Shown here: in pieces, positions 1,006-49,940 of the stretch
How positions within the stretch are numbered: position 1 is the stretch's first letter
Layout: every line of letters starts with the position of its first letter
Source: a virus
Taxonomy: Duplodnaviria; Caudoviricetes
IMG/VR virus record: IMGVR_UViG_3300008255_000098
DNA: 64,000 nt
Direction: 5' to 3' (one strand)
The notes under the pieces: model-generated
The model's input: only the letters and a program-made list of their open reading frames with translations
Databases searched by the model: none
Told to the model about the DNA's origin: nothing
Position numbers and translations under genes: made by a program

Positions 1006-1139
1006 AATATTTTAAAAAAACTGTCTGGTTCAGGAACTGAGTCGGACACTAAACAAAAACGGAATAAGGCGTTGCCATTAGGGTAAGTCTGCGACCTCCG
1101 AAACCCATCCCACGACTAAGTTGTAGGTGGGTAGTTCAC
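1006..1139 (+). mobile_element. Orphan IS200/IS605 right end / TnpB omega-RNA-like module (type A1)
   Basis: Encodes a TnpB-like tail NILKKLSGSGTESDTKQKRNKALPLG*; ends in a hairpin plus GGGTAGTTCAC; near-identical to 26572-26680. Confidence 0.75.
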
Positions 1140-1176
1140 GTGTTAGACTATTAGCTCCTAAGATGGAAAGTATAAT

Positions 1177-4501: not shown

Positions 4502-4598
4502 AATCCAAAATAATAGAATAATAGAATAATAGAATTACCATTCTATAGACCGTCAGGCAGGAATTTTTTTCCTTCTATGAAGGACATAAAATAATAAT

Positions 4599-4723
4599 AC
4601 CGCCAGTTCTTGGCGGTTACATGTGTGGAGCTATAAATAAGACTTCTTCTTTACAAAAGAAGAAGCACAAAGTAGTGAAACCCGAAGCCTAACCCACCGC
4701 CCTAGCGTGGGTGAGTAGTTCAC
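4599..4723 (+). mobile_element. Orphan IS200/IS605 right end / omega-RNA-like module (type B1)
   Basis: GTGAAACCCGAAGCC..CCCAC..GTGGGTGAGTAGTTCAC, shared with 32882-32947. Confidence 0.7.
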
Positions 4724-4795
4724 AGGTTATTGGTGTAATGCGTAGCACAATGGATTCCAAACCCATTAGTTAGAGTTCGAGTCTCTAGTAGCCTG
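4724..4795 (+). tRNA. tRNA-Trp(CCA)
   Basis: AGGTTAT/GTAGCCT acceptor; loop TTCCAAA; TTCGAGT T-loop; no encoded CCA. Confidence 0.8.
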
Positions 4796-4865
4796 CTAAT
4801 AATGATAAAAGGTGGGAAACATCTGTCTGGCCAATAATATTGATTGGCTATAGGCCATATATTTT

Positions 4866-8874: not shown

Positions 8875-9207
8875 AAACAGGAATAAATAAAATCTATGGA
8901 AACAACACCTAAAGCTGGAAAATTATACAAAGTGGTTGGTCCAGCAGAGTTTGTTCCAAATTTAGAAAGTTACGTCAGTTCATCATTCAAGTATCAATTA
9001 TATCGAATAACAGAAGAAATTCCTATAGGGGAAATTTTATTGTTTGTCGAAATACAACAAAACGTTGTTGAAAACAAATATTTACCTACTCTATTTGGTG
9101 ATAAAATAGAAATACTTCTTTACAAGTTCTTGTATGGGGAAAAAATCATTTATTTGGAGTGTTATAATGACGAAATGTTGCGTCAAGTGGAATAACATTC
9201 AGCCAAA

Positions 9208-9301
9208 TAAACAAAAACGGAATAAGGTGTTGTCACTAGGTGAGTCTAAGACCTTCGAAACTTATCCACGTCAGCTATACTGTCGTGGGAGGGTAATTCA
9301 C
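9208..9301 (+). mobile_element. Orphan IS200/IS605 right end / omega-RNA-like module (type A3, diverged)
   Basis: TAAACAAAAACGGAATAAGG..GAGTCTAAGACCTTCGAAAC..GGGTAATTCAC, homologous to A1/A2. Confidence 0.7.
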
Positions 9302-10569: not shown

Positions 10570-10739
10570 AACGTATACAGAAAAATATACTAAATTAGTT
10601 TACAAGGCTGGGCGTTAAAAACCCATCCATTTACTTTTAATCCACAGGACGGAGAATTGTTCACCAGGGGTTAAGAACCTTTGATAGAAAGAGCGGAAGT
10701 GCATAAAGTTTTTGTAGAAACAATGAAATAATTTAACAA

Positions 10740-12081: not shown

Positions 12082-12534
12082 ATGTATATTGTAGAAAAAA
12101 ATTCCAAAAAAAAGGTAGATGCGGAAGAATGGTTTGAATTCGAATCATATGGAAAAATTATATATGACCCGCCTCGGCCAGGAATGAAAAAAAATAAAGA
12201 TTGGTGGGTTATCTTTTCTGTAGATCGTGAAATAACAAGATATTTTCGTTGGCAAATTTTGTGGAATTGGGGAATTAAATTATACCAACCGTCTTGGGAC
12301 GCACATATTTCTATTATTAGAGGCGAACGTCCTGCAAATGATAAGATGCATCTTTGGAAGAAATTTCATGGGCAAAAGTTCAAATTCAAGTATTCAAATA
12401 AAGTATTTCAGGCTGACAATAAGCCAGAATTCTGGTACATACACGCACAGAGTCCGATTATCAAGGAAATACGTGAAGATTTTGGATTTCAATCAGATTG
12501 GACATCTCATATAACAGTTGGAAAAACATGTTAA
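12082..12534 (+). CDS. 2H phosphoesterase-fold protein
   Basis: Two Hx(S/T) motifs, AHISII and SHITVG, about 70 aa apart. Confidence 0.6.
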   Translation: MYIVEKNSKKKVDAEEWFEFESYGKIIYDPPRPGMKKNKDWWVIFSVDREITRYFRWQILWNWGIKLYQPSWDAHISIIRGERPANDKMHLWKKFHGQKFKFKYSNKVFQADNKPEFWYIHAQSPIIKEIREDFGFQSDWTSHITVGKTC

Positions 12535-12563: not shown

Positions 12564-12598
12564 ATTAACTACCCACCCGCAACGGGTGGGTAGTTAAT
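12564..12598. repeat. Perfect 16-bp inverted repeat resembling an IS200/IS605 subterminal hairpin
   Basis: ATTAACTACCCACCCG-CAA-CGGGTGGGTAGTTAAT; arm matches GGTGGGTAGTT of module A1. Confidence 0.75.
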
Positions 12599-13244: not shown

Positions 13245-14843
13245 ATGTGCGGAATTTTTGCCTATAAAGGAAGTTTGATTCCCTTTGAGGAACTAGAAAA
13301 GCAATTTATGAAATTGCAACATAGAGGACCAGACAACATGCAAATAGATGTTGACCCTCAAAAAAAAGTATTTCTAGGTTTTCATAGATTATCAATAATG
13401 GATTTAACTTCCAAAGGAAACCAACCATTTGTTGATGGTACAATACGTTTGTTGTGTAACGGAGAAATCTATAACCACGAGAGTCTAAAACAGGAAATAA
13501 ATTACAAATGTCACTCTGCAAGTGACTGTGAAATTTTACTACCACTTATTGAAAAATTTGGGTTGCTTGAAACATCTAAAAAATTAGATGCAGAGTTTGC
13601 ACTAATATGGTATGACCATAAAACACAAAAAATGATGGCTGCACGTGACCCAATTGGCATTCGTCCTTTATTTTGGGGGAAGACAACTTCTGGAGAAATA
13701 GCCTTTGCGTCCGAGGTCAAAGCATTAGTGGACATTTGTGAGTTTGTTGAAGCATTTCCACCGGGATTTATTTGGGATGGCAATGAATTAATTGAATTTA
13801 GTGATGCAGGCTGTCAGCCTAAAAAAACTCTTTCCGGGTCAGAGCCCATGAAAGAAAAAGAAGTCCTGTACGGAATATCCTATAAGCTTACAGAGGGTGT
13901 TAGAAAGAGGATGGGGGCTGACGCTCCGATTGGATTTTTGTTGAGCGGAGGTCTTGACAGTAGTCTAATTTGTGCTTTGGCAGCTAAAATCTCTGACAAG
14001 CCTATAAAGACGTTTTCTGTGGGGTCAAATATTGACGCAATTGATAATAAATATGCAGAATTAGTTGCAAAACATATTGGCGCTGAACATACTACAGTAT
14101 TGTTTACACAACAAGATGCAACAAGTAGACTAGATGAGCTAATTCGAAAATTAGAGACGTGGGATATTACGACTATCCGTGCTTCTGTTGGAATGGATTT
14201 TGTATGCGAGTGGATACATAAAAATACAAATATTAAAGTGTTGATGACAGGAGAAGTTAGTGATGAATTATTTGGATATAAATATACAGATTATGCCCCG
14301 AATGCAACTGAGTTTCAAAATGAAGCAATTAAAAGAATGAGAGAATTATACATTTATGACGTACTTCGAGCGGACAGGTGTATTTCTGGGCATTCGTTAG
14401 AAAGCAGAGTTCCTTTTGGAGATTTAAATTTTGTAAGCCATGTGATGAATATTCCAGCTGAAATGAAAATGAACACACACGGGCAAGGAAAATATTTATT
14501 ACGCAAAGCCTTTTCCAATATTAACCTTTTGCCGGAAGAAATCCTTTATAGAGAAAAGGCAGCGTTTTCAGATGCAGTTGGACACTCAATTGTTGATGGA
14601 ATTAAGTTTTATGCTGAAACCAACATAAGTGATAAAGAGTTATTAGATGCAAAACAAAAGTACAGTTATGGAACTCCTCTGACAAAGGAAGCTTTATTGT
14701 ATCGTAATATTTTTGAAAGACACTATCCTGGCAGAAGTGAGTTAATTAAAGATTTTTGGTTACCAAATAAAAATTGGGAAAATTGTAATGTTACTGATCC
14801 AAGTGCTCGTGTGTTGCCTAATTACGGAGACAGCGGCAAATAA
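13245..14843 (+). CDS. asnB: Asparagine synthetase B (glutamine-hydrolysing)
   Basis: N-terminal MCGI Ntn domain, HRGPD, NGEIYNH, LSGGLDSS, GEVSDELF, LESRVPF. Confidence 0.95.
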   Translation: MCGIFAYKGSLIPFEELEKQFMKLQHRGPDNMQIDVDPQKKVFLGFHRLSIMDLTSKGNQPFVDGTIRLLCNGEIYNHESLKQEINYKCHSASDCEILLPLIEKFGLLETSKKLDAEFALIWYDHKTQKMMAARDPIGIRPLFWGKTTSGEIAFASEVKALVDICEFVEAFPPGFIWDGNELIEFSDAGCQPKKTLSGSEPMKEKEVLYGISYKLTEGVRKRMGADAPIGFLLSGGLDSSLICALAAKISDKPIKTFSVGSNIDAIDNKYAELVAKHIGAEHTTVLFTQQDATSRLDELIRKLETWDITTIRASVGMDFVCEWIHKNTNIKVLMTGEVSDELFGYKYTDYAPNATEFQNEAIKRMRELYIYDVLRADRCISGHSLESRVPFGDLNFVSHVMNIPAEMKMNTHGQGKYLLRKAFSNINLLPEEILYREKAAFSDAVGHSIVDGIKFYAETNISDKELLDAKQKYSYGTPLTKEALLYRNIFERHYPGRSELIKDFWLPNKNWENCNVTDPSARVLPNYGDSGK

Positions 14844-14850
14844 AGTATAA

Positions 14851-14920
14851 GACGGGGCACCTCGGGGGTACATACGACTGCAAATCGTCATGTTTAAGAG
14901 TTCGACTCTCTTCCTCGTCT
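14851..14920 (+). tRNA. tRNA-Cys(GCA), weak D-arm
   Basis: ACGA-CTGCAAA-TCGT; GACGGGG/CCTCGTC; U73. Confidence 0.75.
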
Positions 14921-15255
14921 CTAGTGTAACCAGTTTAAAAAATCCTGTTTTGTGTTATTCCTAGCACAGAGGCAGGATTTGTTAGTTAACACCAAAGAAG
15001 CGGAAAATGAAGCTATTTTAGCTGAACTTGATAAGAACGGGTTTGTTTGGGTGTCCGTGACAAATAAACAGAATGAACATATCAAAATTACCAAAACGAC
15101 AACTTGGAAAAATGGTGATTTAGTTTTATGTTTATTTAAAAAAGAGTTGCATGTCATGTTAGTTAAAAAAGAATCTATCTTAGAAGATAAAGAACGAGTT
15201 ATTTTTGTATGTCCTAAAAATATTTTTGGAAAAGCAACACAAAGGAAGAACAAAA

Positions 15256-16170
15256 ATGACTAGGTATAAAAAAATTGAGAATATCCTTGTTGTTTACAAA
15301 AAGAGTAGTCTCCAAGAAGCTATTGACCACAATAACAAAAAAATCTTAGACTTAGTAAAAGAGAATCACCCATCAGTAGCAGATTATGTAATGGCGGATG
15401 AAGCACACTCTTTATCCCGTAAAAATGTTAAAGATGCTCTGGACGCCAAATTTCATGTTGAATATCAATATGATGTTGTTGAAAACGAAGTAAATAATTA
15501 TGATTTAGTAATAACTGTAGGAGGAGACGGAACATTTTTGTGGGCGTCAAAGTTTGTTAATTCTAAAGTACCAATGCTGGGAATTAATTCTTCCCCAACA
15601 ACTAGCTTTGGCTTCTTTACTGCATACAAAGGCAGCGACAGAGATTCTCTTATGACCTTGGCTGTTGATTTAGAAAGGCTAGGAATCAAAAGCTTTTCTA
15701 AGAAAAAAGTTGAGGTTGATAGGTTGTCACTTTTTGTAAATGGAAAAATGCTTCAAGACCACATTTTGAATGAAGTTTTATTTGCCGCTGAACATCCAGC
15801 AGCAATGACAAAATATGAAATTGTTATTTCGGATGGTCAAACATCAACCGTAGAAGTTCGTGAACCGCAAAGCTCTAGTGGAGTCTGGATTTCAGCACCA
15901 GCAGGATCGACTGGCGCAAATTATAGTGCTGGAGGTCAAGTATTAAATTTATTTGATCGTCGTGGGCAATATATAGTTCGGGAACCAGCAGTGGGTGGGA
16001 TGTGTTCCCTACACGGGTTTTTCTCACACGGCTCATCTATTAACTTTCTTTGCAAAACAAGAAAAGCGATTCTTGCATGTGACGGAACAAATATTACAAT
16101 TCCAGTGACTATTGGAGATTATATTTCTATTCAACATTCTAAAGAATCGCTTATTATTTTAGGGAAATAA
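15256..16170 (+). CDS. nadK: NAD kinase
   Basis: ITVGGDGTFL, LNE, SAPAGSTGANYSAGG, DG motifs; start moved to MTRYKK. Confidence 0.85.
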   Translation: MTRYKKIENILVVYKKSSLQEAIDHNNKKILDLVKENHPSVADYVMADEAHSLSRKNVKDALDAKFHVEYQYDVVENEVNNYDLVITVGGDGTFLWASKFVNSKVPMLGINSSPTTSFGFFTAYKGSDRDSLMTLAVDLERLGIKSFSKKKVEVDRLSLFVNGKMLQDHILNEVLFAAEHPAAMTKYEIVISDGQTSTVEVREPQSSSGVWISAPAGSTGANYSAGGQVLNLFDRRGQYIVREPAVGGMCSLHGFFSHGSSINFLCKTRKAILACDGTNITIPVTIGDYISIQHSKESLIILGK

Positions 16171-16448
16171 ATGAAATTTTGGAATAAAGATTTAATTATT
16201 GCCCAAAGAAATTGAGTTATAACCCAAAAGCTTTTCCTATAGATAAGAAATTTTTACGGGCTTAGAAGAAATAGAAGTTTTTGACAAAAAGCGTGTAGAA
16301 CTCTTTTTGGGCGTAGAAAGGATTGAATTGTTATTAGTAAATTAATACAACCTTTGCGTATATACTTTTAACTAAAATAGGTTTAAAACCAATGGAAAAT
16401 AGCTCATACTAATCAAGTAAACAAACTTTTAGATTACGAAGAAATATA

Positions 16449-16892
16449 ATGAATTTTGAAACTCCGAAATTAGCTGTTGATTGTATTGTAATAACCCCGA
16501 AGGGAGTCGTTCTTATAGAACGAAAGAATCCGCCTCATGGGTATGCAATTCCTGGCGGGTTTGTTGATGTTGGAGAAACTTTAGAAAATGCAGCTCGACG
16601 TGAAATGAAAGAAGAATTAAACCTGGATGTAAAAATCCTTGGTAGATTAGGCATTTATGATGAGCCCATTCGTGATCCAAGGCAACATGTAATTTCTGTT
16701 GTTTATGTCGGGAAAAGCGAGTTATCTCCTGTGGCTGGCGATGATGCAAAAGAAGCATTTGAAATTCCTTTGAAAATTGTTGATGGAGAGCCAGTTTTCG
16801 ATCGTAAATTTGCGTTTGATCACGAAACCATTCTTAGAGACTTTATTAAATCGGAATTTCTACAAGTTTATAGATTATATTACGGTAAATAA
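16449..16892 (+). CDS. Nudix hydrolase (ADP-ribose pyrophosphatase-like)
   Basis: PGGFVDVGETLENAARREMKEE Nudix box; RDPR, AGDDA, AFDH. Confidence 0.92.
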   Translation: MNFETPKLAVDCIVITPKGVVLIERKNPPHGYAIPGGFVDVGETLENAARREMKEELNLDVKILGRLGIYDEPIRDPRQHVISVVYVGKSELSPVAGDDAKEAFEIPLKIVDGEPVFDRKFAFDHETILRDFIKSEFLQVYRLYYGK

Positions 16893-16893
16893 T

Positions 16894-18111
16894 ATGGAAA
16901 AAACATATACACGAAGAGGATGGATACGTTCTATCCGAAAGAGTAAGAAACTCAGTTTTATCAGTGCCACTGATGGACAGGATGAGTTTCAGCTTACTAT
17001 TAAACATTTTGGAAAAGAAGACGATAGTAAAGTTTTTGGAGACTTTAAAGTAGGAGCTTCATTTGAAGCGTTTGGTAAAGATAGCTATACCCCACGTGGA
17101 GATTACGAATTTTCTGTAAAGGAAATTAAAATTGTTGGCGAAGCGGCTGACGATTTTGCTATTCAACCTAAAAAACATAGTGACGATTTTTTGCGAACTA
17201 TTCCTGAAGAACGTGGCAGAACTGCTTTATATCAGGGAGTTTGGAGAATTAGGCATAAGGTTTCACAAGAGTTACATCGGTTTTTTACGAGCAAAGATTT
17301 TATACAATTCTGGACACCTTGCATTACATCAGCGGATTGTGAGGGTGCAGGAGAAACATTTTCAGTAGAAACTGACTGGCTTAAAAGCCATCTAACGGTT
17401 TCTGGTCAACTGCATGGTGAAGTTGGTATGATGTCCTGTGGGAAGATTTATACTTTTGGGCCGTGTTTTCGTGCGGAGAAATCAACTGGTCGTCGTCATC
17501 TTGCAGAATTTTGGATGTTAGAACCAGAAATGGCTTTTTATTCTCTAAAAGAAACAATGGACCTTGTAGAAGACTTACTCAGCCATGTTTTTAGAGTCGC
17601 ATCAAATGAATATGAAAAAGAATTTGAGAAAATGCGGGTTTCAATGGACCATATTACTGAAATGATATCTTTGCAAAAAGCGTGGCTCCGCATGACATAT
17701 GAAGAAGTTTGTGATAAATACGGGCTTGTTTGGGGCACGGATATTAATGCTGAGTTGGAGCGCAAGCTAACAGAAGATTTAAAATCACCAGTATTTATCA
17801 CTCATTGGCCAAGGGAAATGAAACCTTTTTACATGAAAAATGACGGAATCGTAGCAGAGTGTTTTGACCTCATTTTCCCAGAGGTCGGAGAACTCATAGG
17901 GGGCTCTGTACGTGAAGAAAATTTTGAGAAACTTAAAAAATCAGTAGTTGATTCTGGAATAGATGCACAATCAATGGATTGGTATCTTAAAACTAGAAAA
18001 CACGGAACAGTGCCACATGCAGGTTTTGGATTGGGTTTTGAGAGACTTATAATGTATATTTGTAAGTTAGAAAAGATTCAAGATACGATTCCATTTCCAG
18101 TTAGTTATTAG
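16894..18111 (+). CDS. asnS: Asparaginyl-tRNA synthetase
   Basis: OB domain GWIRSIR, LTVSGQL, FRAEKS..RHLAEFWMLEPE, ELIGGSVRE, PHAGFGLGFER. Confidence 0.92.
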   Translation: MEKTYTRRGWIRSIRKSKKLSFISATDGQDEFQLTIKHFGKEDDSKVFGDFKVGASFEAFGKDSYTPRGDYEFSVKEIKIVGEAADDFAIQPKKHSDDFLRTIPEERGRTALYQGVWRIRHKVSQELHRFFTSKDFIQFWTPCITSADCEGAGETFSVETDWLKSHLTVSGQLHGEVGMMSCGKIYTFGPCFRAEKSTGRRHLAEFWMLEPEMAFYSLKETMDLVEDLLSHVFRVASNEYEKEFEKMRVSMDHITEMISLQKAWLRMTYEEVCDKYGLVWGTDINAELERKLTEDLKSPVFITHWPREMKPFYMKNDGIVAECFDLIFPEVGELIGGSVREENFEKLKKSVVDSGIDAQSMDWYLKTRKHGTVPHAGFGLGFERLIMYICKLEKIQDTIPFPVSY

Positions 18112-22819: not shown

Positions 22820-23092
22820 ATGATTAAAAAAAAATATGTGACAATTGCTGAAGGTACAGATTTTCGTACAATTGCAAAAATTATGACGACAAAAGGGTAT
22901 GTAATGAATCACGCAACCGCAAGGAACGTTTTGATTTCTGCGATCAAAAAAATACTAGCTCACTCTGCAAATGAGTTTGGAGTTAAAATTAGTCCTGAAA
23001 TGTTGAGTAAACTAGTTAAAGATCAAAGGCTTCATGGAGCTTTAGCGGACGTACTTTATAGAGTACAAAATCAACAAAAGGAAAACAAATGA
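22820..23092 (+). CDS. Small HTH-like protein, candidate detached sigma region 4.2
   Basis: DFRTIAKIM..NHATARNVLISAIKKI directly after the truncated sigma. Confidence 0.4.
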   Translation: MIKKKYVTIAEGTDFRTIAKIMTTKGYVMNHATARNVLISAIKKILAHSANEFGVKISPEMLSKLVKDQRLHGALADVLYRVQNQQKENK

Positions 23093-23330
23093 CAATCGAA
23101 GTTAAAAAACCAGATCTTCTTGCGGTAATAAACCGACGTGGCCGTACTTTAGAAGAATTTTTGGCAGAACTTGGGGTTTCTGACAGAAAAACTCTTGATA
23201 GAAAAATATCCTTATTAAAATCTCACTATACTGTAAGTGATACTTTTATAAAACAAGCTTATTTATTAGTTCCGAGTAAGCCAGTTGTAAAAATTGTAGA
23301 AGAGCCAGTGAAAATAGAAGCAGTAGCAGC

Positions 23331-23396
23331 GGGGGTGACTTCGGGGGTGACTTCGGGGGTGACTTCGGGGGTGACTTCGGGGGTGACTTCGGGGGT
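23331..23396 (+). repeat. 12-bp tandem repeat (GGGGGTGACTTC) x5.5, encoding (GVTS)n in ORF 23089-23487
   Basis: Five perfect units plus GGGGGT. Confidence 0.95.
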
Positions 23397-25693
23397 AGAA
23401 GACAAAAGTCAAAAAATCGAAGAACCTACCCGAACAAAAGAACGAAAAGTTGTTAGACAAAAAAAGTCTTCTAACAAAAAACAGTAGATAGATTAGATTA
23501 AATCTTTAAAAGTGCGGACAAGTATGGTAAAATGTTTAAATGGACAAACAAAATAAAAATCTAAGATTTACCGAAGGTAAGCTTGTGATGTATTCAAAAA
23601 AAAATACTCGTTCGGGACTTATCAAATATTTCTTACCAACAACAAATAAAAATAAATCTATATATAGTTATTTGCAGCGTGTAACAGGAACGGCACATAG
23701 ATATGTTGAAACATATGTTGATAACATGAAACGAGGAGTTCCGTTTTTGTTGATCGAAGACCCAAAATTAGTCAGCACGAAAGAAAAATATTTTTTATAT
23801 CAAGGTACAAATTCAGACGCAAATAGTCGAGCTAAAGGACAAATGTTTTGGAGAATTAAATTTTTATACAAAGAACAAATTTATGTGTCTTATTTAACTA
23901 GAAAGCAATATTCACAAGAGTTGGTTATTGCAGTTCTAGCTAGACTAAATAAGGACTATTCAATTGGAGGAAAAAACAAAACTATCTTTTAAAAAAGTTA
24001 AAGATCTTGGCAGGGTATGTGTCTTTCTAAGCGCAGAAACACTAAAAATAGCAGGAAATATAGCAGCTGCGCCATTAGCAGACCGTAAAAAAACTATGAT
24101 TTTTCCGCTAAATTTAGCGGCTAAAGCATACCAAGCAGTTAGTGACGGGTGGAATGCTTCTGTATGTAAACATATAAATTTACAGTTGGCCTCTTCAGGT
24201 ATTCACCCAGGCACAATTATTATTTCGCAAAAATCTATTATTGGTGTTCCAAACTCGTCTCTTTTACTTAGAGATAGAAAATATATTCTCATTCCAGAAA
24301 ATGAATATATTATGTTTTTGAATGTTGAACATAGCCAAATTAGTGATAATTTTTTGATTAAAGTGTTGTGGGGAACAAGAATCTTATTTATAAATTCACA
24401 AAAAGGAATTGAAACTTTTGAAGAAATATTTTCTTTAGCTTACGATGGAAAAACAAGAAACAAATTTTGATAAATTTATTATAGACAATTTTGGACTTTT
24501 ATTTTTAAAAGTCGGGATAGTTCCGGGAAGTATTTTAGTATGTGAAAAGCCAACAGTAATTTTATATAATTATGAAAATAAAATTAATGAAATAAACTTA
24601 TTAGAAAAAGACACGTTAGTTTTCTTAGGAACATTTGATAATTTTATTAGAAATAATATGTTTTTTTGGAGTGACGCTACTTTTTTAGGAATGATACATG
24701 GTAAATTTTACAATATTTTAATTTCAGATTTTCGGGCAAGAATTTTTAGAAATTTTGTTGTTTGGAAACAAGATAAATGATTAAATACAAAAGTAAAATA
24801 ATTTGTTTAACAACTCTTGCTACATTAAAACACGCCTATGGAATAGTGCCAGGAAATATTTTCTCTATTAGTGAAACCATCGAGTGCCATGAAATATGTG
24901 AAAAAATAAGCAAAGACCATATTCTAGAAACAGAAACTACGAAATTTATGGACAGAGTAGACGAAATACTTACAGCAGGCAAGTATATGATATTTTTAGA
25001 TATTGTTTTTGATCCAATCACTCATGAACATTTATTTTTGTTTTTACACCCAAATGGAATATATGGAAAAATTTGGAAGAAAAACCATTCGATCAGACAT
25101 TTAAAAGACTGGTTAACATGGGGAAAAGAAGAGAATAATGCCAGATAATCCAAGATATAAAAAAGGGGCACTGTGGCTAACGAGAACAAGCATACATGCG
25201 TTTTTAGACAGAGAACACAGTGAAAATAATGCTTTCTCTATTATTCCAAAAGGGGAATATGTAATGTTATTAGTTTATTTTTTGAATAAGAATTATTCTG
25301 AACATATTTCTATTTTATGGAACGAACATTTGTATTATGTTTATGATGTAGATACCGCATACCAATTTAACATTGATCCAGGACATCACAATACTAAACA
25401 AAGTTAAAATAATTTTAGTAGTAAATTAGTTTTGGCGCTATTATTATTCATGTGGCGCAAAACAAATACACTTTAGGAAAAATGTTTCAGGTGTTATCAA
25501 CTACATCAGTAATCACCACAAATCCAAATTGTTCACAAAATCGAACAATAACACACGTTGACCACAAAAAAATAGCAGTTGGGGAGATTTTATTATTAAT
25601 AGATTATTTTGATCTAGGAATATCAGGAATTTGGGTGTGGCTTTATTATGATAGTGTGGTATGGCAAGTGATGGAAAAAAATAATTTTAAGAA

Positions 25694-26515
25694 ATGTTGG
25701 AGGTTGTTATGAGGCCGGTAGTGTTGTTCAGAGCAGGTTTGGCAGAAGAAAAAGAAATGCAGGTTTGTGCAAAATATTTTCCTGTTATTACCCAACGAAG
25801 TCATGTTAAAAAAGATGATCTTATTATTCCTAGGTATTCAGCAATACCGTGGTACAAAGAGTTTGAAGAAGACGTAGTATATTCTGGCGGAAGGATAATC
25901 AACTCTTTTCGAGAGCACAACTATGTAGCGGATTTAAAAAATTGGTATTATCATCTTGAGGAATATACTCCAAGAACTTGGTTTTATTTGGATCAAATAC
26001 CCCAAGATGGTCCTTTTGTTTTGAAAGGACAAACAAGCTCTCTCAAACATAGTTGGAACACACACATGTTTGCTAAAAACAAACAAGAAGCAATTCAAGT
26101 ACATTCTAGATTATGTGAAGACAGTTATATTGGAACACAATTAATTTACGTGCGTCAGTTTGTTCCTTTGCGACGCCTTGCTGATGGTTTACAAGGTTTG
26201 CCTATATCTGAAGAATATAGATTTTTTGTACTCAATGGGGAAGTATTAAGTGGAGCATTTTATTGGTCTGAACATAGTGAGTATATTGAAGAACAAGGCA
26301 TAGATATTAGTTCAAACAATGTTCCAAAAGTCTTTTTAGATAAAATTATTTCTATTGTTAAGCCGCATATTCCATTTTTTGTAGTTGACATAGCACGAAC
26401 TGCAAGCGGGGAGTGGATAGTAATAGAATTAAATGACGCTCAAATGAGTGGGTTAAGCGATAATGATTCTGAAATATTGTATTCAAATATGAGAAAAGTG
26501 TTGTCTGAAAAGTAA
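25694..26515 (+). CDS. ATP-grasp domain protein (R2K/DUF4343-like)
   Basis: PFVLK, EEYRFFVLNG, VVDIA..WIVIELNDAQMSG. Confidence 0.75.
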   Translation: MLEVVMRPVVLFRAGLAEEKEMQVCAKYFPVITQRSHVKKDDLIIPRYSAIPWYKEFEEDVVYSGGRIINSFREHNYVADLKNWYYHLEEYTPRTWFYLDQIPQDGPFVLKGQTSSLKHSWNTHMFAKNKQEAIQVHSRLCEDSYIGTQLIYVRQFVPLRRLADGLQGLPISEEYRFFVLNGEVLSGAFYWSEHSEYIEEQGIDISSNNVPKVFLDKIISIVKPHIPFFVVDIARTASGEWIVIELNDAQMSGLSDNDSEILYSNMRKVLSEK

Positions 26516-26571
26516 ACTGTTAACCTCCAATATAATTATCTTTGAGCAAAAAACAACAAGATTTAAAAATA

Positions 26572-26680
26572 CTGTCTGGTTCAGGAACTGAGTCGGACAC
26601 TAAACAAAACGGAATAAGGCGTTGCCACCATTAGGGCGAGTCTAAGACCTCCGAAACCCGCCCCTGGGCGGGTAGTTCAC
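26572..26680 (+). mobile_element. Orphan IS200/IS605 right end / TnpB omega-RNA-like module (type A2)
   Basis: CTGTCTGGTTCAGGAACTGAGTCGGACAC..GAAACCCGCCCCTGGGCGGGTAGTTCAC; near-identical to A1. Confidence 0.78.
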
Positions 26681-26718
26681 AGCCACGTAAATATCGTAAA
26701 CAAATTCTTTGAAATTTT

Positions 26719-27081
26719 GGGGATAAATTGGATTCGACTTGGGAAACAACGGAACAATAACGTTGTAGTGGATGTTCACGCCCACTTAAATATCGTGAAC
26801 AAATATAAATGCAGATAATGCACCACTTGCTCTTGCTGCCTAAAAAACACTAGAGCCGTTGAACGGATAATGTGCTTCGATTACCGGGAAATGTCATTTT
26901 AGAGGCTAGACGAAATTACCATTGGATTGCTTTTGAGTAATTAGTTTAAATTAGTAAAAGTAAGAACCCGCTGTAGATGCTTGTAGCTTAGATGCGGAAA
27001 ATCTAAAATCAGGATAGACAACGTAAATGTTTTTCTAGAAGTTCTTGAGGACGAGGGCATCGAAGCCCTCTATCTCCACCA
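26719..27081 (+). ncRNA. ssrA: tmRNA, tag (A)ADNAPLALAA*
   Basis: GGGGATAAATTGGATTCGAC 5' end, G3:U70 acceptor, TATCTCCACCA 3' end, pk1, tag ORF 26811-26843. Confidence 0.95.
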
Positions 27082-44293: not shown

Positions 44294-45409
44294 ATGTCTA
44301 TGTTTTCAGTGTCCGTAGAAAAAGTAATAGTAGTTCCGCATCCTCACGCTGACAGACTTGAAGTTGTTCAAATAAATGGATATCAGTGTGTCGTTGGTAA
44401 AGACGAGTTCAAATCAGGAGATATAGTTGCATATATCCCTGAACAAGCCATAATTCCCCAAAATATCTTAGAAGAGATTGGACTTGTTGGCCGTCTTGCA
44501 GGGAAAGATAAAAACAGGGTGAAGTCTACGCAAATTAGAGGAGTTCTTTCCCAGGGAATTGTATATCCTGGCCGAGATTATTGGAAAATTGGCGATGACG
44601 TCACAGAAGAACTTGGAGTAGAAAAGTGGATGCCTCCAGTACCAGCAAAAATGGCTGGAGAAGTTTTTTCGGCCGGTGTCAATAGGACGGTTCACTATGA
44701 TATTGAAAACTTCAAAAAATTTCGGAATGTTCTTGTCGATGGCGAACCTGTGGTAATTACAGAAAAAATTCACGGAACATTCTTTTGTGCAGGTGTTATG
44801 CCTAATTTTATGGCACACCCAGAGTATGGAAAGTTAATTGTTACGAGCAAAGGGCTTGGAGCACGTGGTTTGGCATTTAAATATGATGCTGAAGCTAATG
44901 AAAATAATTTGTATGTTCGAGTTGCCCGGCATTATTCTTTAGAAAATAGGATTACTTCTATTTTCAGAAAGACTTTGTTTCCAACAGGACTTGTTGGCTC
45001 TGAAGAAGGTGAACCAGTGTTTGTCTTGGGAGAAATTTATGGTATACAGGATTTAAAATATGGGGCCAAAGTAGATAAAAATATAGATATCGGATTCAGA
45101 GTTTTTGATATCTATATAGGAGTTCCTGAGCGAGGGAGATTTTTAAGTGATTCCCAACTTGACAAGGCTTGCGCTGCTCTCGACCTTCCTAGAGTGCCAA
45201 TAATTTATCGTGGTCCATATTCGGCAAATATTCTTCAAGAGCACACAGACGGTCGGGAAACGGTCAGCGGCAAGGATTTACATATACGTGAGGGGATAGT
45301 AGTGAGAACGCAGATTGAGCGCACAGATAGCAAATTAGGAAGAGTTCAACTAAAGAGCGTTAGTGAAAAATATCTTTGCCGCCGTGGCGAAACAACGGAG
45401 TATAATTAA
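44294..45409 (+). CDS. RNA ligase (DRB0094-like, OB fold plus ligase domain)
   Basis: HPHADRLE, TEKIHGT, GEIYG, VFDI, REGIVV, LKSVS..YL. Confidence 0.88.
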   Translation: MSMFSVSVEKVIVVPHPHADRLEVVQINGYQCVVGKDEFKSGDIVAYIPEQAIIPQNILEEIGLVGRLAGKDKNRVKSTQIRGVLSQGIVYPGRDYWKIGDDVTEELGVEKWMPPVPAKMAGEVFSAGVNRTVHYDIENFKKFRNVLVDGEPVVITEKIHGTFFCAGVMPNFMAHPEYGKLIVTSKGLGARGLAFKYDAEANENNLYVRVARHYSLENRITSIFRKTLFPTGLVGSEEGEPVFVLGEIYGIQDLKYGAKVDKNIDIGFRVFDIYIGVPERGRFLSDSQLDKACAALDLPRVPIIYRGPYSANILQEHTDGRETVSGKDLHIREGIVVRTQIERTDSKLGRVQLKSVSEKYLCRRGETTEYN

Positions 45410-48412: not shown

Positions 48413-48643
48413 ATGACAAAACTCGGAGATGCACTCATGACGATTACGTACGACTACTTTTGCAATGACTGTGAAAAAGAGTTCACAGCTGAACAATCCA
48501 TTAAAGATGAACCACTGACCAAGTGTCTTATTTGTGAAGGTAATGATGTCTTTCGCCTTCTTAGTAAAGATAGTACCTTTATATTAAAAGGCAGTGGTTG
48601 GTTTTCTGACCTTTATTCAACTCCAACAAATAAAAAAGAATAG
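48413..48643 (+). CDS. FmdB-family zinc-ribbon protein
   Basis: YDYFCNDC..F...QSIKD.PL..C..C..FILKGSGWF. Confidence 0.85.
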   Translation: MTKLGDALMTITYDYFCNDCEKEFTAEQSIKDEPLTKCLICEGNDVFRLLSKDSTFILKGSGWFSDLYSTPTNKKE

Positions 48644-48647
48644 TAAA

Positions 48648-49940
48648 ATGTTTAATCCTACACACAATACAAGTCAATGTATTCATATGTCTCCAGGCAA
48701 TAAGGTATCTATTGCTGGAAGAGTTGTATATTTTCGTAAGCACGGCGGGGTGTCTTTCGGAAAGGTTATAGACCAACACGGCAGCATCCAATTTTGTGTA
48801 CGAAAGGCCGAAACACCAGAACGGTATTTAGACTGGCGTAGTGAAATCAAGATAGGAGATATTGTTTATATTTCTGGGGAAACTTGGATTTCAGCCAGTG
48901 AAGAAAAGAGCGTATTGGTTACAGAAGATTTACAAATTTTACGACATTCCACACATCCTTTCCCGAACAAGGCAACAGGAATTGTGGACCCTGAAATAAA
49001 GATTCGTAAGAGGTATTTAGATATTATTACCAACCCCGAAGTTAAGAAGGTGTTTCAAACACGCTCTAAGATTGTATCTGAGATTCGTAGGTTTCTAGAG
49101 AGTTATGACTTTATGGAAATTGAAACGCCTGTGTTGCAAGTAAATGCATCAGGCGCTCAGGCAAAGCCGTTTTCAACGCACCACAATGCATATGATTCGG
49201 ACATGTATTTGCGTATTGCCCCTGAAACTTATTTAAAGCGTGCAGTAGCGGCATCTTTTGATCGAGTGTACGAAATTGGAAAGAACTTTCGTAACGAAGG
49301 TGTTGATAGTGCTCATTTGCCCGAATTTACATCGGTAGAATTTTATGCAGCTTATTGGGACTATAAGGATAACCTAAAGTTATTTCGAGAAATGTTGGCA
49401 GCGTTGCTGGAAACGGCGGGTCATGGTGGTGGTACTGTCGTGTTCCAAGATTCTATATATAATTTTAATGACATTGAATGTGTAACTTTTGAAGAGATTT
49501 TTCAAAAGTATGTCGGAAAGTCAACCGCAGAATTCCAAAACAAGGAAATTGATACAATTTTCAAGGAAAGGGTTCGTCCAAACCTTATACAGCCTATCTT
49601 TGTTTTGGACTATCCAGCATATATGAGCCCGCTTGCTCAACGGAGTCAGGATGGAAAGACGGTGGAACAATGGCAATTTATTGTAGGAGGGGCAGAGCTA
49701 GTAAAGTGTTATACTGAGTTGACTGACCCAATTTTACAAAGAAAGCTCCTAGAAGAACAGGTTGCCCAACGTGTTGGCGGCGATGACGAGGCTATGATGC
49801 TTGAAGAAGATTTTTTGGAAATGCTCGAATATGGCTGCCCGCCATGTAGTGGTCTTGGTCTTGGTATTGATAGGTTGGTGGCTCTCTTGACTAACCAAAC
49901 ATCCCTGCGGGATGTTGTACTTTTCCCCACAGTGTTCTAA
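48648..49940 (+). CDS. lysS: Lysyl-tRNA synthetase (class II)
   Basis: RKRYLDII, EIETPVLQ..GAQAKPF.TH, LRIAPETYLKR, FRNEG..HLPEFT, PPCSGLGLGIDRL. Confidence 0.95.
   Translation: MFNPTHNTSQCIHMSPGNKVSIAGRVVYFRKHGGVSFGKVIDQHGSIQFCVRKAETPERYLDWRSEIKIGDIVYISGETWISASEEKSVLVTEDLQILRHSTHPFPNKATGIVDPEIKIRKRYLDIITNPEVKKVFQTRSKIVSEIRRFLESYDFMEIETPVLQVNASGAQAKPFSTHHNAYDSDMYLRIAPETYLKRAVAASFDRVYEIGKNFRNEGVDSAHLPEFTSVEFYAAYWDYKDNLKLFREMLAALLETAGHGGGTVVFQDSIYNFNDIECVTFEEIFQKYVGKSTAEFQNKEIDTIFKERVRPNLIQPIFVLDYPAYMSPLAQRSQDGKTVEQWQFIVGGAELVKCYTELTDPILQRKLLEEQVAQRVGGDDEAMMLEEDFLEMLEYGCPPCSGLGLGIDRLVALLTNQTSLRDVVLFPTVF

Follow-up and report, generated by a model that had tools for sequence, protein, structure and literature searches.

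The closest described relatives of the repeats analysed here are ISGst2 of Geobacillus stearothermophilus, which uses TTTAT as its TAM and TTCAC as its TEM, and its PATE-like derivatives, which "often encode omega-RNAs" and need TnpB in trans (Meers et al. 2023, PMC10055086). The copies in our window (the whole 64,000-nt stretch of phage DNA analysed) have the same TTTAT/TTCAC pair and a right-end omega-RNA, a likeness in end motifs and layout. First, the gene-less derivatives of ISGst2 keep both ends together with the omega-RNA, whereas most phage copies are without the left end. Second, ISGst2 resides in a bacterial chromosome, whereas the phage copies lie in a ~200-kb groundwater phage, with no tnpA or tnpB in the DNA examined.

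Transposase-free elements of this layout are also described in Haloquadratum walsbyi, where PATEs such as HqIRS71 show near-terminal palindromes and arose from IS605-type transposons through loss of the core, and where PATEs retaining a C-terminal coding remnant are on record (PMC3119063). These have an archaeal host, are unrelated in sequence to the phage copies and had been described by the time omega-RNAs became known. PATEs with omega-RNAs have already been described and, as it stands, the phage modules are ordinary transposon decay of a described kind. A further comparison is with ISDra2, whose TAM is TTGAT. In the ISDra2 TnpB structures (PDB 8H1J, 8BF8, 8EXA), as in our viral contig L090, the scaffold overlaps the 3' end of tnpB and the guide lies past the element end. 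The ISDra2 TAM differs from TTTAT, and the window copies are protein-less.

Five modules and the tnpB 3' end

The sequence-only reading of the window proposed five modules, ending at 1139, 4723, 9301, 26680 and 32947, in two sequence types, A (1139, 9301, 26680) and B (4723, 32947). Mutual alignment and a covariance model (CM) place all five at these ends on the + strand, and alignment together with repeat finding separates the same two types, the latter as families D7, D11, D12 and D15. The alignment is strongest across the final ~50 nt. The covariance model, trained solely on scaffolds from other contigs and run unfiltered on both window strands, recovers every module, A_9301 weakly; these matches, and one to a candidate ending at 897, are all on the + strand.

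1010-1139, + strand: type A module A_1139 (CM 52.3 bits, E 1e-10)
4580-4723, + strand: type B module B_4723 (CM 90 bits, E 2e-19)
9166-9301, + strand: type A module A_9301 (CM 15.1 bits, E 0.06)
26558-26680, + strand: type A module A_26680 (CM 43 bits, E 2e-8)
32821-32947, + strand: type B module B_32947, extent of the CM match (46.5 bits, E 3e-9)

The bare motif RTTCAC is not enriched in the window (59 found against 65 expected); therefore, the evidence is the whole module. In Rfam, no family matches the modules, at the gathering score or at E up to 10 (two modules).

In other viral contigs, full-length tnpB genes end in ~130 nt to which the modules are homologous. Scanning viral contigs with a 16-nt type B motif gave 73 loci, 47 of which carry the same hairpin-TTCAC tail. 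At 22 of these 47 an ORF of 382-469 aa stops 5-6 nt short of the element end, and all 22 ORFs terminate in the same ...GGGTAGTTCAC. Pfam analysis of five such ORFs found OrfB_IS605 and the Cas12f1-like TNB domain in each, and an HTH in four. Within ...GGGTA(G/A)TTCAC, the bases TA(G/A) form the stop codon of tnpB; since the ORFs end 5-6 nt before the element does, the (G/A) of (G/A)TTCAC is the third base of the stop codon (TAG/TAA). A hairpin followed by TA(G/A)TTCAC is present in all five modules, TTCAC being the right-end cleavage motif (TEM). Type A is likewise a tnpB tail, in contigs L002 and L090, and the type A-linked TnpB of L090 matches the ISDra2 TnpB structures with E 1e-78 over residues 4-366. 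In elements of other loci, TTTAT precedes ~20 left-end motifs with a hairpin. Full elements measure 1340-1820 nt between their left and right ends, gene-less mini-elements 84-412 nt. Among genomes, those of Bacteroidota most often carry the type B right-end family, a hint as to both the host range and where a TnpB could come from.

Changes on both sides of a pair are seen at 13 of 26 pairs in the type B set and at 9 of 36 in the type A set. This covariation is not proof of an RNA role, because the hairpin at the right end serves TnpA as a DNA substrate too. The earlier description of the modules, as TnpB omega-RNA scaffold and right-end hairpin without the protein gene, agrees with the tnpB 3'-end homology and the covariance model; judged by sequence, the modules are protein-less omega-RNA scaffolds.

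The absence of tnpB from the window was also confirmed. With eight TnpB proteins as queries, tblastn finds C-terminal tails at the modules only and no other tnpB fragments in the window, and Pfam finds no tnpB among the large ORFs. Neither tnpA nor tnpB is present in the window. A further ~34 kb of the same genome, at L098, L102 and L126, also gave no tnpB; the tnpB search thereby covered ~98 kb of ~200 kb. The survival of 3' ends only is non-random, though a common deletion junction explains the pattern.

Individual copies and fragments

Read 5' to 3', A_1139 has a tnpB-tail remnant, then the scaffold, with its 12-bp stem 1 beginning at 1021, its core stem and its right-end hairpin, and finally TTCAC. 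Its CM score of 52.3 bits compares with 52.4 bits for the TnpB-linked L090, and tblastn aligns it to the TnpB C-terminus with E 9e-6. All 36 predicted scaffold pairs are kept in A_1139 and in A_26680. Upstream of the A_1139 module, two features were located.

907-1009, + strand: decayed left end of the A_1139 mini-element (alignment with the intact L080 left end)
860-897, + strand: possible older, AT-decayed right-end relic, ending GCAGTTCAC (CM 15.3 bits, E 0.06, weak)

The TAM position of this element (907-911) reads TTTAC. Substitutions, most of them G to A, disrupt its left-end hairpin, and the shared deletion junction comes next. The left-end hairpin is decayed far more than the scaffold, a difference that could reflect constraint on the RNA. 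The candidate relic is stacked immediately upstream of the element.

The other type A copies are preserved to different degrees. A_9301, which ends TAATTCAC, keeps the core and right-end hairpin, and roughly half of its stem 1 is gone; the tail of a 99-aa ORF (8896-9195) extends into the 5' part of the module. A_26680 begins 43 nt past the stop of ORF 25694-26515 and has an intact scaffold, a short right-end hairpin and no left end. A near-identical type A mini-element with intact TTTAT and left end is found at L080, on a co-occurring contig, and the type A copy of L004, a locus of the same ~200-kb genome as the window, has its left-end hairpin deleted. One junction between left-end remnant and tnpB tail is common to A_1139, A_26680, the L004/L126 copy and L080. 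This indicates a single loss of the protein, after which the mini-element multiplied; the four copies, which occupy different sites, spread as a gene-less unit. The "repeated loss" of the protein put forward by the sequence-only reading is thus not supported, the type A copies pointing instead to one mini-element that multiplied.

For type B, B_4723 consists of scaffold and right end without a left end (no left-end profile match), adjoins tRNA-Trp, and aligns by tblastn to TnpB residues 389-421. Between tRNA-Phe and B_4723, a 9-nt tandem repeat AATAATAGA is present in three copies (4510-4536). B_32947 belongs to a longer structure.

32642-32646, + strand: TTTAT, the TAM of the B_32947 mini-element (motif and spacing as at ~20 left ends elsewhere)
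32647-32715, + strand: left end with nearly intact subterminal hairpin (nhmmer left-end profile, E 7e-6)
32716-32947, + strand: interior and degraded type B scaffold/right end of B_32947 (CM 46.5 bits)

Since TTTAT, the left end and the right end are all present, 32642-32947 is a complete ~300-nt mini-element. The canonical stem 1 is missing from B_32947 and its right-end hairpin is bulged. The type B interior at 32742-32818 is shared with L004 (4451-4526), elsewhere in the same genome. In an nhmmer search of the window with the left-end profile, 32644-32715 is the sole significant match, so that four of the five modules are without one. Compared with the features of a PATE (both palindromic ends, left TAM, no ORF), 32642-32947 shows all of them and 907-1139 shows them with a decayed left end; the 4723, 9301 and 26680 copies are right ends only.

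The type B copies of the window score 90 and 46.5 bits, against 107-150 bits for TnpB-linked scaffolds and 145-150 bits for gene-less mini-elements elsewhere. Integrity across the modules is graded, with 1139 and 26680 intact and 9301 and 32947 broken. A_1139 and B_32947 show opposite patterns: the better preserved part is the scaffold in A_1139, but the left end in B_32947. Selection on the scaffold RNA shows no consistent sign across the copies.

Outside the modules, one fragment and two end-like hairpins had been pointed out, and they fared differently.

57399-57433, + strand: type A stem 1 followed by T7, terminator-like (family D7; fold; blastn to L004, 89%)
10610-10664, + strand: left-end-like relic, ending TTGTTCAC and preceded by TTTAC (motif search, direct reading)
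12567-12595, no strand assigned: perfect 13-bp palindrome plus GGGTAGTT (direct reading; weak CM matches on both strands)

The fragment at 57399 is real, and is type A stem 1 alone (57399-57426), then T7; 57399-57433 lies 7 nt upstream of tRNA-Gly. The hairpin near 10612 resembles a left end rather than a right end by motif search and direct reading, and the 5' arm of 10610-10664 is ~90% like 32650-32672. At 12564, the palindrome (12567-12595) is indeed like the right-end hairpin, but TTAAT replaces the expected TTCAC; it lies just past ORF 12082-12534. The loop of this palindrome (12580-12582) reads CAA here and TTG, the reverse complement, in contigs of two other runs; either the loop has inverted or the difference arose in assembly.

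Flanks, targets and alternative readings

We compared the DNA that follows each TTCAC, the position of the guide in a working omega-RNA. Two flanks fall in known RNA genes or copies of them.

4724-4796, + strand: tRNA-Trp (CCA) (ARAGORN; Rfam tRNA, 47.6 bits)
26681-26711, + strand: flank of A_26680, a diverged copy of the internal tmRNA segment 26780-26810

The first base of tRNA-Trp comes directly after TTCAC; therefore, the "guide" of B_4723 is the 5' half of the tRNA, and RNase P processing of tRNA-Trp would be expected to cut it from the scaffold. The internal tmRNA segment is itself preceded by GTTCAC, and the tmRNA gene begins at 26719. The duplicated tmRNA stretch of ~31 nt, with its GTTCAC, occupies 26675-26711 and 26774-26810, which suggests a past rearrangement or the use of an alternative TTCAC boundary at the tmRNA gene. 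The flanks of 9301 and 26680 have AGCCAC.T.AAT in common. The claim that every flank differs holds in part: the 9301 and 26680 flanks are mutually related and the 4723 flank is tRNA-Trp, and difference is otherwise automatic at separate sites, because the insertions were made at different TTTAT sites.

The guides were searched for off-locus targets next to a TAM, and none was found: IMG/VR has no exact 20-nt match to four of the guides, and no TAM-adjacent near match (<=5 mismatches) occurs in the ~118 kb made up of the window, the three further same-genome loci and the co-occurring contig L129. The sequence-only reading had favoured a distributed guide repertoire over decay. This finds no support in the copies, of which the integrity varies, four of five have no left-end profile match and one has a tRNA as its guide; moreover, two flanks are interrelated and these searches gave no targets.

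The modules are probably the right-hand parts of ISGst2-like IS200/IS605 elements from which an internal deletion has removed the genes; these would be PATE-like and decaying. Within that reading, A and B are two PATE-like families as judged from their sequences. Each mini-element would have been made once by internal deletion, and a Y1 TnpA acting in trans would have pasted copies 3' of TTTAT. Insertions would have gone to tolerant intergenic DNA, chiefly tRNA arrays. Without transposase or TnpB at hand, the copies would decay, each being at its own stage, and the "guide" of each copy would be whichever DNA adjoins the insertion. Any scaffold-shaped RNA made by read-through would do nothing unless TnpB were present; given a cognate TnpB, the only role open to intact copies would be the known one, cutting alleles of their own site that lack the insertion and are flanked by TTTAT. 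All module copies are co-oriented with transcription, which counts against a plain-decay reading; a promoter scan upstream of the modules gave no consistent promoter. On this reading, a ~200-kb groundwater phage has been colonised by numerous copies of ISGst2-like IS605 elements and their gene-less omega-RNA derivatives, with the tRNA arrays as the main location.

Alternatively, the intact mini-elements may be transcribed and act in trans as working omega-RNAs, the TnpB being supplied by the host, by a co-infecting phage or from some unseen stretch of this genome. Their targets would be empty alleles flanked by TTTAT in the genomes of siblings or rivals, and their role homing or competition, as proposed for PATEs. 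We consider this unlikely. The scaffolds of 1139, 26680 and 4723 are structurally sound, and other phage contigs often carry protein-less mini-elements whose scaffolds are fully intact; a near-identical type A mini-element with intact TTTAT and left end is present in a co-occurring contig. The literature holds that PATE omega-RNAs would work in trans (PMC10055086), and Bacteroidota genomes, in which the right-end family is common, are a possible TnpB source. However, neither the window nor ~34 kb more of the genome contains a tnpB, two of the five scaffolds are degraded, RNase P acting on tRNA-Trp would remove the 4723 guide, and neither empty-site nor off-locus targets were found (IMG/VR exact; ~118 kb). 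Use in trans of the three best copies by an external TnpB is likewise unlikely. If some copies were so used, they would amount to an RNA-guided counterpart of the homing endonucleases found in T4-like phages. It is quite doubtful that this jumbo phage keeps the mini-elements as a cheap kit for homing or competition, borrowing TnpB from a host that may belong to the Bacteroidota or from a second phage infecting the same cell; if true, the intact copies would guide cuts at TTTAT-flanked, uninserted rival alleles, for example beside tRNA-Trp or tmRNA, dragging flanking phage markers along.

We give little credence to the idea that the relics have been reused structurally near the tRNA and tmRNA genes, to terminate transcription, mark processing sites or stabilise RNA. 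The GC-rich hairpins stand out in an AT-rich genome, stem 1 with T7 at 57399-57433 is like an intrinsic terminator, the palindrome at 12567-12595 sits right behind an ORF and several copies lie directly ahead of tRNA or tmRNA genes. However, T-runs are absent from the full modules, no + strand terminators are predicted at the modules, terminator sites are not enriched (14 found against 9.5 expected), and neutral tolerance of insertion predicts placement in tRNA arrays too. Lastly, we give next to no credence to the hairpins having arisen by chance or to a repeat peculiar to the phage that has nothing to do with IS605, a reading for which the non-enrichment of bare RTTCAC and the lack of an Rfam match would speak, since CM matches reach E 2e-19 with a model from TnpB-linked sequences of other contigs; the tnpB-terminal ORFs, Pfam domains, tblastn matches to the TnpB C-terminus and CM matches together refute this reading.

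Phage genome and assemblies

The source is a ~200-kb groundwater/aquifer phage, of which several assemblies represent the same strain at 99.9-100% identity. Two independent assemblies (L102 and L103) terminate inside the A_1139 module, at ~1049, as would be expected of a repeat; this repeat family fragments assemblies of the phage. If the modules are decaying mini-elements, the assembly-breaking family is explained as IS605 relics. Among the contigs of four DNA runs, all of the same strain, there are no joints spanning a module and only short-sided joints, which arise from tRNA look-alikes. L089 and L080/L129 show no synteny with the window. Orthologous loci of ORF 1177-2052 were not found; homologues of ORF 31792-32607 are only ~50% identical, and modules are absent at all six that were searched. 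Cultured-phage records gave no blastn match to the first 12 kb of the window or to either module type.

The window DNA is AT-rich, with nearly all genes on the + strand, and contains 39 tRNA genes and a tmRNA at 26719-27081; its gene content includes a translation and NAD-metabolism set. Along with the 39 tRNAs and the tmRNA, the phage encodes an asparagine synthase, NAD kinase-like and NAMPT/NAPRTase-like proteins, RNA ligase and two class II aminoacyl-tRNA synthetases (genes at 13245-18111, 35084-36676, 44294-45409 and 48594-49940). A ~90-nt promoter-like intergenic stretch (55144-55232) is 85% conserved at L004 1300-1386, a distant site of the same genome, and reads TTTACA/TTTGCA ... TATACTAT; in L004 it sits just upstream of a type A relic. 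Within ORF 23089-23487, a 12-nt tandem repeat CGGGGGTGACTT occurs in at least five copies (23318-23396). Finally, a well-formed tRNA at 30143-30220 has the anticodon TTA, which reads UAA, yet the window ORFs are continuous under code 11.
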